Positions 30,361 to 33,400 of a DNA stretch of 38,941 bases are shown here, piece by piece. Each line of letters starts with the position of its first letter. Positions within the stretch are counted from its first letter, which is position 1. A program made the translations under genes and the position numbers. Source of the DNA: Candidatus Curtissbacteria bacterium RIFCSPLOWO2_02_FULL_40_11 (GTDB lineage: Bacteria; Patescibacteriota; Microgenomatia; Curtissbacterales; GWA2-41-24); assembly GCA_001776505.1 (NCBI GenBank), contig MFBV01000044.1, forward strand, positions 1 through 38,941, read 5' to 3'. The notes under the pieces are model-generated. The model was not told the DNA's origin. It worked only from the letters and a program-made list of their open reading frames with translations, and ran no database searches.

Positions 30361-30414
30361 TCACGGTTTTGCTAAAGAAAATGGACAGATAGATTTATAA
30401 GCACAGTATACACA
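30361..30414 (-). pseudogene. Displaced recoded 3'-end copy of the helicase-nuclease gene
   Basis: CVYCAYKSICPFSLAKP* versus active CNYCAYNSICPFSLAKIT*. Confidence 0.93.
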
Positions 30415-30418
30415 AGTC

Positions 30419-30437
30419 CCCTTCGACAAGCTCAGGG
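30419..30437. repeat. REP-like CCCTTCGACAAGCTCAGGG
   Basis: Family members at 18853, 21263, 32970, 34595. Confidence 0.8.
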
Positions 30438-30446
30438 TGCATGCAA

Positions 30447-33400
30447 TTATGTAATCTTTGCTAATGAGAAAGGACATATCGAATTATAAGCACAATAATT
30501 GCATGCAGGTTCGCGGCCGAAATATTTGGGATTGGCTGCGAAATGATTGTTAGTAATATCCCTTCTGATATTGTCTGCGGTGTCTATAATTAATTTTTCG
30601 GTTTTTTCTAAAGTTTCTTGGGTCGGAGTATAAAATCCTTCAATTCCGGTTTCTAAAAAATGGAGCGTGAGTTTTTGGGGAATAATTTTGTGGCTTTTGT
30701 AATAATAGAGAGCGTAGACTGCAAGCTGAGTCGATTCTTTAGCCTGGCTATTCGCTCTTCCCTCGTCAATATTTTCTGAAGATTTGTAATCTATAATTTC
30801 GACTTCGGAACCTTTTCTAACGTCTACTCTATCGAATCGACCGGTAATCGTAACGCCCGACAGAGAAAACTTGAAGGGTGATTCAATGAGACTGGGAACG
30901 TCTTTAGTTTTTGATTCACGTTTATAGAATTGCTCCAGGGCAATTTTACCTTGAGCTTTTCTTTTTTCTTCATGCTCAACTGTTAAAAATCCTTCGCTGT
31001 CCCAGGCATTTTCAAAAACTTCTAGAAGATTTCCCAGCGACATTAGCTGTCCGCTTTTTTTAACTCGAAAAAACTGGGCAACTGCCGTGTGAAGAGCGGC
31101 GCCATAAGCAATTGCATGATGACGAACTATGGGAAGACGTAAAATGTGCACATAACGATATTTAAAAGCGCAAGTTAAATAATCGTCGATCGAACCTTGG
31201 GTAAGTTTTAAAACGTCAACGTCGAATAAAACTTGTTGGCTCGTCTGCCAGCCGGTGGATGTAGGGGCTGGTGCAAACTTTTCAATTTTTTCAAGTGGAG
31301 ACAGTTTGGTAAATATACTATCTGCTTTTGGCTTATCAAGCGCTTCCAAAACAAATGGTGAAATCTTTTTAAGCCTTCTGCCTCCAACATCCCGTGACCA
31401 AGAAAAGTACGCTAAATCCATGGCACGAGTTACCCCAACATAAAAAAGCCTCCTTTCCTCCTGCATATGCCAATCACCAGAGGGCAAAGTTTCGCGAATA
31501 ATTTTTTCTGGAACCTCTATTGCTTCACCACGATATCGGCTAGGGAATCTGTCGGATACCAAATTAACCATAAAGACAACCGGGAATTCTAAGCCTTTAG
31601 CACCGTGAACCGTCATGACATTAACGGCATCTAAGTCGGGATCGAACTCAATTGTTGCCGGGTCGTCTCCGGCAGACCGAAGAGCCTCGAGGTATTCTAT
31701 GAAATTTTGAGTCGAATTATTAGACGCAACTTGTTCAAACTCTTTTATCTTGTCGAAAAATTTGGCAATGTTTTGGATTTTTATCTGCCCTTCCACTTGG
31801 TTCTCGCGATCTAACCGCGTGAGATATCCGGTGCGTTTTAGAAAATCGTATAAAACTTTGCCAACATTTTGGCGACGGGAGAGCTTGATGGATTCATCTA
31901 AGTCATTCAAGATTTTTTCGATAATTGATTGGCTTTCGCTAGATAATTCGAATTCTTTAAGCCCCATACCCATGTCATCCTGAGGAGACGCAGTCGACGA
32001 AGGATCTTGTGATTCTTCGCTTCGCTCAGAATGACGTCTCTTAGAGCTAGAATGTATCTCCAAATTCTTTAATAAATAGTACAAAGATCGATTCTTTTTC
32101 TTTGCAAAAGACGTCAGTTTGATAGCATCGGTTGGTGGTAATTGATAAATGTCCGATGTTATTAGGTTGTAAATATTTAAGCTATCTTCAAAATTTGTAA
32201 TTGCAGTAAGATATGAAATTAAAATACTGACTTCTTCTTGCTGATATAGGCCAGATGAACCAACAAACTTGTGAGGGATACCTTTCATATTAAGTGATCT
32301 TAAGAAATGATCAGCCTGGAAATTGGCGCGAACTAAAATTGCAAAATCTCTGTATGTGTAACGCTTAACGCTTTTTTGATTTATCAATCTTTCAATTTCT
32401 TCAGCAACCAGATCGGCTTCTTCGCTCAGCGTGTCCGCAAAAATTTCCTGAGGCAAATGCCCGACATTAGTTTTGATGGATTTGAGTTTTTTATCAATTT
32501 TATTTTGGACTTCCAATCGGTTTGGGTCATTGTGCCTAATTAAGCGGTAAGCGCTGTCTAGAATTTTTTGAGTGGATCGATAATTAACCGTTAAAACTAC
32601 CTGTTTTGTTTTTGGATAATTTTTCTTAAATTCTAAAATGTTGGAAATTGCAGCGCCGCGGAATTTATAAATCGATTGATCGTCATCGCCAACTACACAA
32701 ATATTTTTGTGAGAGCTTGCCAAAGTTTTGACAAGTTCGTTTTGGGCAAAATTTGTATCTTGATATTCGTCTACCAAAATGTATTTAAATTGTTGTTGAT
32801 AATTTTTTAAAAGTTTTGGGCGACGCGTGAATAGTTCAATCGTTTTAACAACCTGGTCACCAAAATCTAAAAATCCAGCTTCGTCTTTAAACTTTTCATA
32901 TTTTTCAAAAGCATGCGCAAGTTCTTTGTATTTTTTTGCTTCTGCTTTCTCATCGCCTTTAGCCTTTAGCCCTTCGACTTTGCTCAGGGTTAACTGGCGT
33001 TTAACGTATTGCGAAAACTCAGCTGGACTGACGTTCTCGTCTTTTAGTCTTGAGAAAAAATCTAAAATTGACGAAATAAATTTTGTGGGATTACTAAGCG
33101 GCCGCCAATAATCTAACTCAAATCGAAACAAATTTTGCTGGAAAAATAAAACTTGTTGGGGCTTGCTAAAAACCTTGAAGTCTGGTGAAAAACCAATTTC
33201 TAAAGCGTTTTCACGAAGAACACGGTCACCAAAAGCATGGAACGTAGAAATCCAAGTGTCGATAAAACCGTATGGAACGAGTTGGTCGACGCGCTCTTCC
33301 ATTTCTCCGGCAGCCTTGTCTGTAAAAGTGAGTGCCAAAATTTCAGAGGGTTTGGCTAACTTTTTTTCAATAATGTAAGCAATGCGCCGAGCAATTACTG

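Follow-up and report, generated by a model that had tools for sequence, protein, structure and literature searches.

The DNA analysed here, called the window, is the 38,941-nt contig MFBV01000044.1 (assembly GCA_001776505.1) of Candidatus Curtissbacteria bacterium RIFCSPLOWO2_02_FULL_40_11. It contains a gene for a UvrD-type helicase fused to a nuclease, in the 3' end of which an 89-bp stretch has probably been inserted. This small insertion has no open reading frame (ORF) and consists of a replacement gene tail with its stop codon, an inverse copy, S', of S (the 13 nt with which the inserted stretch begins), and a short hairpin. It is likely that a dedicated mobile mini-element with an imported tail is responsible. 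Such elements would be non-autonomous and locus-specific and would spread between lineages, and essential genes may tolerate them because of the rescue tail that they bring.

The helicase-nuclease protein matches the Pfam families UvrD-helicase (2.8e-81), UvrD_C (4.5e-48), PDDEXK_1 (2.5e-31), and Cas_Cas4 (2.8e-05), and its C-terminus is a Cys-rich tail ending in ACNYCAYNSICPFSLAKIT before the stop. The initial annotation had claimed that this tail is duplicated, which is borne out. A second copy, GTCVYCAYKSICPFSLAKP followed by a stop, lies downstream in a frame that differs from that of the live gene. From C to K (16 codons), the two tails share 14 residues; 8 codons are recoded synonymously, and 2 are non-synonymous. 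At the nucleotide level, the tails differ at 12 of 48 positions and share no identical run longer than 11 nt. The two tails form a direct repeat with a spacing of 89 nt. The tail copy scores 80, and none of 1218 shuffled pairings of genes with downstream regions reached 45. The same annotation described the spacer as the 13-nt inverse junction plus a repeat, and this also proved correct: TTGCATGCA, the 19-mer of the repeat, and 3–4 nt follow the stop in that order, and then the second tail begins.

S and S' form a perfect 13-nt inverted repeat (100% complementary), which is the dominant stem in the predicted DNA fold of the insert; the repeat hairpin folds into a 4-bp outer stem only. When the 30 nt after the stop were compared with the last 110 nt of the ORF, none of the 1215 other ORFs of the genome had an inverse match of at least 13 nt. 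The insert itself, at about 30418-30506, is 89 bp long and holds no ORF. Logan contigs from other sequencing runs match the arrangement with 0 differences (X10, 29720-30509; X15, 30370-30877). Because these independent contigs reproduce it, the arrangement is not an artefact of a single assembly. The features of the locus are collected in Table 1, together with two ribosomal protein genes of the window that show the same layout.

Table 1. Coordinates of the features in the window
Feature	Position	Strand	Details
Live gene	30447-33503	minus	UvrD-type helicase fused to PD-(D/E)XK (Cas4/AddB-like) nuclease, 1018 aa
Tail 1 (live, judged element-borne)	30447-30503	minus	CNYCAYNSICPFSLAKIT + stop TAA
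Tail 2 (judged displaced resident tail, silent)	30361-30414	minus	CVYCAYKSICPFSLAKP + stop TGA
S (first 13 nt of inserted stretch)	30495-30507	minus	coding strand TGCATGCAATTAT; pairs with S'
S' (inverse copy of S)	30438-30450	minus	overlaps stop codon, abuts hairpin
Short repeat hairpin (19-mer)	30419-30437	minus	coding strand CCCTGAGCTTGTCGAAGGG; abundant interspersed family
Separate double palindrome, 49 nt	30306-30354		CACCTCSGAGGTG twice; between tail 2 and methyltransferase start
Downstream methyltransferase gene	29768-30292	minus	Pfam Methyltransf_31
rpsO (S15) layout	4570-4704	minus	S 4695-4704; stop 4669-4671; S' 4662-4671; F1 hairpin about 4607-4661; old tail 4570-4605; Pfam Ribosomal_S15
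S20 gene layout	21021-21254	plus	S 21021-21030; stop 21096-21098; S' 21096-21105; F1 hairpin 21106-21158; old tail 21159-21254; Pfam Ribosomal_S20p

The orthologous helicase locus was compared at 20 readable loci in relatives of the same family. The same-genus genome G002 is un-inserted, and its gene ends in ACVYCAYKSICPFSLAKP with a stop that overlaps the methyltransferase start. Tail 2 equals this G002 helicase end in residues and length and stands at the resident position. Because G002 lacks the insert and ends like tail 2, the 89 bp of tail 1, S', and hairpin are probably the insert, and tail 2 is probably the displaced resident end. The helicase gene of G001, also of the same genus, is un-inserted too, and the methyltransferase start overlaps the helicase stop at the un-inserted loci L002 and L003, of which L003 is that of G002. 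Tail 1 ends in AKIT before its stop, with a length matching other genera, and is nearest to the tail of G015, at 83% over 48 nt vs 71% for the gene body, which are short and noisy identities. The 48-nt identities to G001 and G002 are 79–81% for tail 2 and 69–79% for tail 1, a stretch too short to decide which tail is native.

Helicase tail inserts are present at 6 of the 20 readable loci (G000, which is the genome studied here, L006, L009, L010, L018, and L013). Two inserts are stacked at L010, and the insert of L013 is longer. In the helicase inserts of other genomes, the junction is CAY/NSIC (a slash marks junctions throughout), the hairpins differ, and S' matches the first 8–11 nt of its own insert. 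Insert presence varies within the genera g1, g5, and g18 at the helicase and rplL loci, and the un-inserted helicase and rplL loci that were read have no S' after the stop. At L004 and L006, small GIY-YIG-like genes, recognised by reading and not by a family library scan, directly follow the helicase gene, each behind a short hairpin.

The divergence between paired tails bears on their history. Codons were compared at 24 loci. All were kept, even three that aligned poorly and one in which the comparison was made with an identical third copy. This gave 166 identical, 191 synonymous, and 69 non-synonymous codons, so that 73% of the changed codons are synonymous, against 15% in a simulation with an equal number of random changes. 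Because the changed codons are mostly synonymous, both tails must have served as functional protein ends during almost the whole of their divergence. The two tails of a locus are thus diverged working copies that were joined recently. An in-place duplication followed by decay was also considered and is excluded by the mostly synonymous differences. Paired tails diverge by about 10% to 40%, so the donors ranged from near to far relatives. Decay is seen in some displaced tails, with an in-frame stop at L059, a truncation at L052, and lost cysteines at L013.

The layout is not confined to the helicase gene. A tail-copy scan covered the 1218 ORFs of at least 90 aa in the 938-kb genome, and the last 25 residues of each were sought within 300 nt downstream. 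Tail copies scoring at least 45 were found for 11 ORFs and for none of the shuffled pairings. A score of at least 38 was reached by 14 ORFs, of which three were set aside by reading: C39 and C37 (low-complexity proline-rich) and C38 3498, which resembles the start of the next gene. The hosts are H+-pyrophosphatase, L7/L12, Rho, EF-G, a release factor, topoisomerase I, a ComM-like ATPase, a SpoU methylase, a Na/H exchanger, MsrB, and the helicase-nuclease. At most of these loci, the bases just 3' of the stop are the inverse of those with which the duplicated stretch opens. An exact inverse match of at least 9 nt was present at 5 of 13 tail-copy loci vs 22 of 1215 controls, and one of at least 8 nt at 7 of 13. 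The S15 and S20 genes (88–89 aa) fall below the 90-aa limit and were thus missed by the scan; in rpsO, 8 of the 12 tail codons are recoded, with 0 residues changed. Altogether, about a dozen conserved housekeeping genes show the layout in a genome of 0.94 Mb. Five tandem tail copies in the order A-B-A-B-C were observed after the Rho gene (L024; G000:C22:6100-6730); these represent two alternating insert types and arose either from repeated insertion or from duplication of a two-insert unit.

Larger insertions of 350–1700 nt with ghost tails also occur in this genome, two of them in the window, and they lack S'. For a 620-aa gene (15705-17567, minus strand), 19 tail residues recur as a ghost copy 690 nt downstream, past two small ORFs (15015-15651) and without an inverse copy. 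A contig of run X10 joins position 15705 to 14958 through 16 other letters, which means that a variant without cargo exists for the region 14958-17567. The gene at 35336-36331 (minus strand) has a decayed ghost tail with an in-frame stop 644 nt downstream, past the ORF at 34717-35082, and a looser CCTGAG..TCGAAGGG motif adjoins this ghost tail (region 34600-36331).

One hairpin family, termed F1, was analysed in more detail. Its copies in G000 were found by blastn, and the genomes of the bacterial family were searched by hairpin pattern, which gave 29 matches in 17 of 32 genomes vs 5 for the reversed control. By reading, 24 matches were true hairpins, and 5 were chance matches in coding DNA. 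The layout is present in 22 of the 24 F1 copies and in all 5 detectable copies of G000. Stems that start right at the hairpin foot have a median length of 10 nt; they reach at least 7 nt in 20/24 copies and at least 9 nt in 16/24, compared with 1.8% and 0, respectively, of 960 random positions. A T precedes S in 23/24 copies, S starts with AA in 23/24, and the hairpin ends in TCTA, which is followed by AA (20 copies) or AG (4 copies). The F1 hosts include rplL, rpsJ, an S3-like tail of 4–5 codons only, a membrane protein, and S20. Five F1 copies have a loop of 3–11 nt without a gene tail and are apparently intergenic. Across copies, the cargo is between 3 nt and about 100 nt long. On this F1 evidence, the unit can be described as a double hairpin, S-loop-S' followed by the second hairpin, in which the loop may hold a gene end. 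A class-wide pattern scan matched 54 of 301 genomes, but many of these are chance matches, and control matches were frequent; on inspection, several further families also showed F1-like copies.

Inserts in rplL were found at 8 of 25 loci of relatives, every one at AAT/AAR GAR, and they use two hairpin families, F1 and F2. The base before AA is T in all 8 inserted alleles, whereas among un-inserted alleles it is T in 11 and C in 6. At least five different S/S' pairs occur, each complementary within its own copy. Because the pairs differ yet remain complementary, S and S' change together between lineages. In alignments of related inserts, the S block, S', and the hairpin frames are conserved, whereas free variation is seen in the spacer 3' of the stop and inside the hairpin. 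At L030 (G019), a lone S'-like 12-mer complementary to the tail start follows the old rplL tail and a terminator, and no hairpin follows it. In G042, of the same genus, the same 12-mer is followed by an F1 hairpin, and the lone 12-mer may be the remnant of a lost insert. A search against Rfam 15 at E-values up to 1 gave no match on the hairpin regions; besides the RF03531 match described below, it gave one microRNA chance match. Fold z-scores of the loci were modest, from -0.8 to -3.1, and the ranges folded for rplL and S20 excluded S, so they carry no information on the S:S' stem.

A mechanism can be proposed from this geometry. The resident tail of the helicase was probably pushed downstream and is no longer translated. 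S' would act like the guide of IS200/IS605 elements, as it lies exactly 5' of the hairpin foot, with the start of the old tail exactly 3'. Pairing of S' with the element's own S would set the other end, and the intervening DNA would travel along. Pairing of S' with the homologous target bases would let the folded hairpin place the element's 3' end by their 5' side, and strand transfer would be carried out by a single-strand HUH/Y1-type enzyme supplied in trans. An HUH-like mechanism of this kind is offered tentatively. It is also possible, though we consider it rather unlikely, that these are natural programmable single-stranded DNA elements, in which a guide S' of 7–17 nt defines both the excised stretch and the homologous landing site in another cell. 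An invertible S–S' segment was rejected by reading, as inversion gives a non-tail peptide and an early stop in frame.

The genome has eight matches above cut-off to Y1_Tnp (PF01797), in ORFs of 200–231 aa, and also eight small GIY-YIG genes and one reverse transcriptase (RT) gene; no TnpB signature was found in it. The Y1_Tnp gene at C30:3423 has the CACCTCSGAGGTG palindrome on either side, and further copies of the palindrome occur. The 49-nt double palindrome next to tail 2 is a miniature derivative of an IS200-like element. Because one Y1 gene is flanked by the palindrome of this mini-insert, IS200-like transposition is active in the genome. Nested and tandem insertions at a single site were observed (helicase L010, Rho).

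Several observations weigh against a mobile element of the proposed kind. F1, F2, or the CCCTGAG motif that forms the helicase repeat was found within 900 nt of none of the eight Y1_Tnp genes. The presence of Y1_Tnp does not track the elements across 32 genomes, a comparison that is uninformative, and G008 and G044, which are 88% complete, have elements and no Y1_Tnp match. The helicase hairpin is a generic repeat with a weak stem. Because the helicase S' fits the start of the old tail at only about 5/12 positions, guide-to-target pairing is doubtful for this copy; at H+-pyrophosphatase and L071, the match of S' to the old tail equals or exceeds its match to the new one. No strain-level excision product or empty allele was found in the Logan contigs of four runs; none of the joints listed skips the insert, and the contigs break around it and are uninformative on excision. 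In addition, all genomes compared are metagenome assemblies. The exact junction 20-mer had one match in the genome contig collection, a chance match in a coding region of an Acidobacteriaceae metagenome-assembled genome.

Four other explanations were weighed. The pattern could be a recombination scar without a dedicated element, in which DNA of a relative entered by gene-body homology with an illegitimate joint upstream of the resident tail, and the hairpin and S' are merely what lay downstream in the donor. The larger ghost-tail insertions of the same genome agree with a scar, since they lack S' and gave no new inverse match of at least 9 nt at 11 loci inspected (the sole 9-nt match is the small ComM-like insert already counted), and so do the generic hairpin of the helicase and an S' that does not match the old tail. 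However, random joints would not repeatedly set an inverse copy of the first 9–17 nt of the insert exactly at the hairpin foot (16/24 vs 0/960), would not reuse the T/AA junction at many genes or stack inserts at one point, and would not yield copies without cargo in intergenic DNA; S' is also absent after the stop of the un-inserted loci that were read. A scar is thus considered improbable. An assembly artefact that concatenates strain variants is extremely improbable: contigs of other runs do break near 30276-30509, as repeats would cause, but independent contigs span the whole arrangement with 0 differences, and dozens of separately assembled genomes have the same architecture.

Two explanations remain. 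If the arrangement were a reversible tail switch, both tails would be used, the stretch from S to the old tail would be removed from DNA or RNA at some rate, and the downstream tail would be kept under selection. Downstream tails do keep their protein sequence remarkably well, all downstream-tail differences among three genera with a similar rplL insert are synonymous, and direct repeats flanking hairpins favour precise deletion. The two tails, however, encode almost the same peptide, so nothing would be gained by switching; some downstream tails have stops, truncations, or lost cysteines, and no contig joined across the insert was found, with contigs being the only data searched. Recent, repeated insertion into resident tails explains the pattern equally, and a switch is judged quite improbable. 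A selected structure at the mRNA 3' end, such as a terminator, stabiliser, or processing site made of the S:S' stem and the hairpin, with the tail copy being incidental, is more improbable still. It would account for stems that are maintained by paired changes and for the dominance of the S:S' stem in the fold, but it leaves the diverged tail copy, the stacking, the copies without cargo, and the T/AA junction unexplained, and there is no T-run after the hairpin, no Rfam match, and only modest fold z-scores.

The mobile mini-element with an imported tail can be compared with known systems. Mobile ORF elements of fungal mitochondria carry a foreign C-terminal gene end in Allomyces atp6 and in Glomus atp6, atp9, cox2, and nad3 (PMC3630166, which cites Paquin 1994). 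The likeness is that a foreign, diverged gene end is inserted in frame, and the native end, which remains most similar to that of near relatives, is displaced downstream. In the fungal elements, however, an endonuclease ORF of their own drives mobility, whereas the inserts described here are 60–130 nt without an ORF in a bacterial host, and S' with the hairpin is their constant feature. No endonuclease ORF was found between the two helicase ends in the 89-nt insert; the eight GIY-YIG genes lie elsewhere in the genome. Prophage e14 of E. coli inserts in the 3' end of icd and leaves the icdC pseudogene (PMC13626634). In both cases, the live gene continues into the element, beyond which a displaced piece of the C-terminus remains, but e14 is a 15-kb prophage with its own recombinase, and the present inserts are shorter than 130 nt and have no integrase. 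An identical att core of the e14 type was not found between the helicase tails, whose longest identical run was given above.

IS608 offers a precedent for the proposed guide. Located just 5' of the hairpin foot, the IS608 guide forms base pairs with the site to be cleaved or targeted, and engineered longer pairing led to 12/17-nt targets (PMC3201880, PMC5934647). The inserts resemble IS200/IS605 elements, their miniature derivatives, and REP/RAYT in having hairpin-defined ends and no terminal inverted repeats. Natural IS200/IS605 guides are 4 nt, whereas the pairing here is 7–17 nt (13 at the helicase, F1 median 10), and, unlike in IS200/IS605, one end consists of a stem with a loop that has room for a gene tail. 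When the inserts were considered as PATE (IS200/IS605-derived miniature elements), a Y1 HUH transposase (TnpA) was available in the genome (8 matches), but the element hairpin was not among the transposase flanks (0/8 Y1 genes within 900 nt). From its position, S' may be guide-like, as it abuts the hairpin foot at the helicase and in F1. Insertion at a fixed short target without target duplication is possible for F1, with left junctions of T/AA at 23/24 and right junctions of TCTA/AA or TCTA/AG; the helicase insert has CC/TGCA instead. For REP/RAYT, no Y1 gene of the genome is flanked by the CCCTGAG..TCGAAGGG motif. Membership of the tail-carrying elements in IS200/IS605 is not established.

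Tiny hairpin repeats, such as the Rickettsia palindromic elements and the double-hairpin elements of Allomyces mitochondria, can be tolerated as in-frame insertions in essential genes. Those elements add residues inside the protein, whereas in the present inserts the stop codon precedes the hairpin and the element supplies a spare tail. In transformable bacteria, homology-facilitated illegitimate recombination can bring in homeologous DNA through an anchor in a conserved gene, and duplicated ends may be left behind; it predicts scattered microhomology joints, in contrast to the fixed architecture with an anchored inverse copy seen here. A diversity-generating retroelement (variable repeat/template repeat) was rejected, as, of the 12 tail differences, A is on the tail 2 side in 4 and on the tail 1 side in 4, and the targets are invariant housekeeping tails. 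None of the compared systems combines an ORF-less insert of about 60–130 nt, a rescue tail, and an anchored inverse copy. No description of such elements in bacteria was found in the literature, with subscription journals and supplements outside the coverage.

The repeat that forms the helicase hairpin deserves separate treatment, because the initial annotation had proposed it as a recombination site for tail cassettes. It was said to recur at four other places in the window. The exact 19-mer occurs only once, even with 3 mismatches allowed; its degenerate form, CCCTTCGA-N-CTCAGGG, does recur, at three places and not four (18853, 21263, and 32970; 0 expected), and a looser copy without the first C lies near 34.6 kb. 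The role as a cassette site is not supported by the genome, where a tail copy accompanies 1 of 21 CCCTTCGA-N-CTCAGGG copies; only the helicase copy has a tail copy together with an adjacent inverse match. In relatives, a tail copy was found at 0 of 30 sampled repeat copies, taken from 30 loci (one or two per genome) among more than 300 matches. Of the 32 genomes of the bacterial family, 28 contain the motif in abundance, with 0 control matches, and it also occurs in frame within the helicase gene at 32970-32989, encoding TLSKVEGL; looser versions are found in the spacers at EF-G and the ComM-like gene. The CCCTGAG motif is thus a generic interspersed hairpin, both intergenic and in frame within genes, and not a dedicated junction. 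At 18800-18900 and 21240-21330, composite hairpin clusters were observed in which the motif is nested in or beside other palindromes, without a tail copy. The further suggestion that more than one hairpin family serves the same process is supported, since several unrelated hairpin families carry the recurrent, non-random layout. Reversible cassette swapping was not shown; the data agree with a small element that inserts in one direction only and delivers a new tail.

Some additional observations concern the helicase gene and the mobile genes of the genome. A GC-rich stretch at about 31900-32000 in the helicase gene encodes HSERSEESQDPSSTASPQDD and resembles an in-frame insertion of a hairpin module. 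A sub-threshold Rfam match to RF03531, a small RNA inside a C. difficile helicase gene, lies within the helicase coding region (31389-31490, minus strand; 38 bits vs a gathering score of 65) and most likely reflects coding conservation. Y1_Tnp genes were observed a few kb from rplL (G000:C26:543-773 and 5713-5985; also G001:C3, G023:C36, and G042:C27), which may represent a conserved neighbourhood rather than a recent insertion. The window also contains an RT fragment (17746-18003, minus strand; PF00078, E-value 8e-10) with one in-frame TAG, and a full RT ORF of 366 aa is located at G000:C45:9755-10369.

The layout looks like an undescribed kind of tiny mobile DNA in ultra-small bacteria. The constant inverse copy beside a hairpin points to target choice by base pairing of 7–17 nt, without RNA or a large protein gene in the element, which would be of interest for HUH enzymes and site-specific insertion tools. 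If the guide reading is true, ORF-less DNA of 60–130 nt would home into essential genes across genera of Patescibacteria and would be a natural counterpart of the engineered long-guide IS608. Where imported and ghost tails go unrecognised in Patescibacteria, they will lead gene calling, marker-gene phylogenies, and strain comparisons astray. If the elements are mobile, they would imply frequent DNA exchange between genera of never-cultured bacteria and would represent a new way for very small selfish DNA to inhabit essential genes, by bringing a copy of the part that it breaks.

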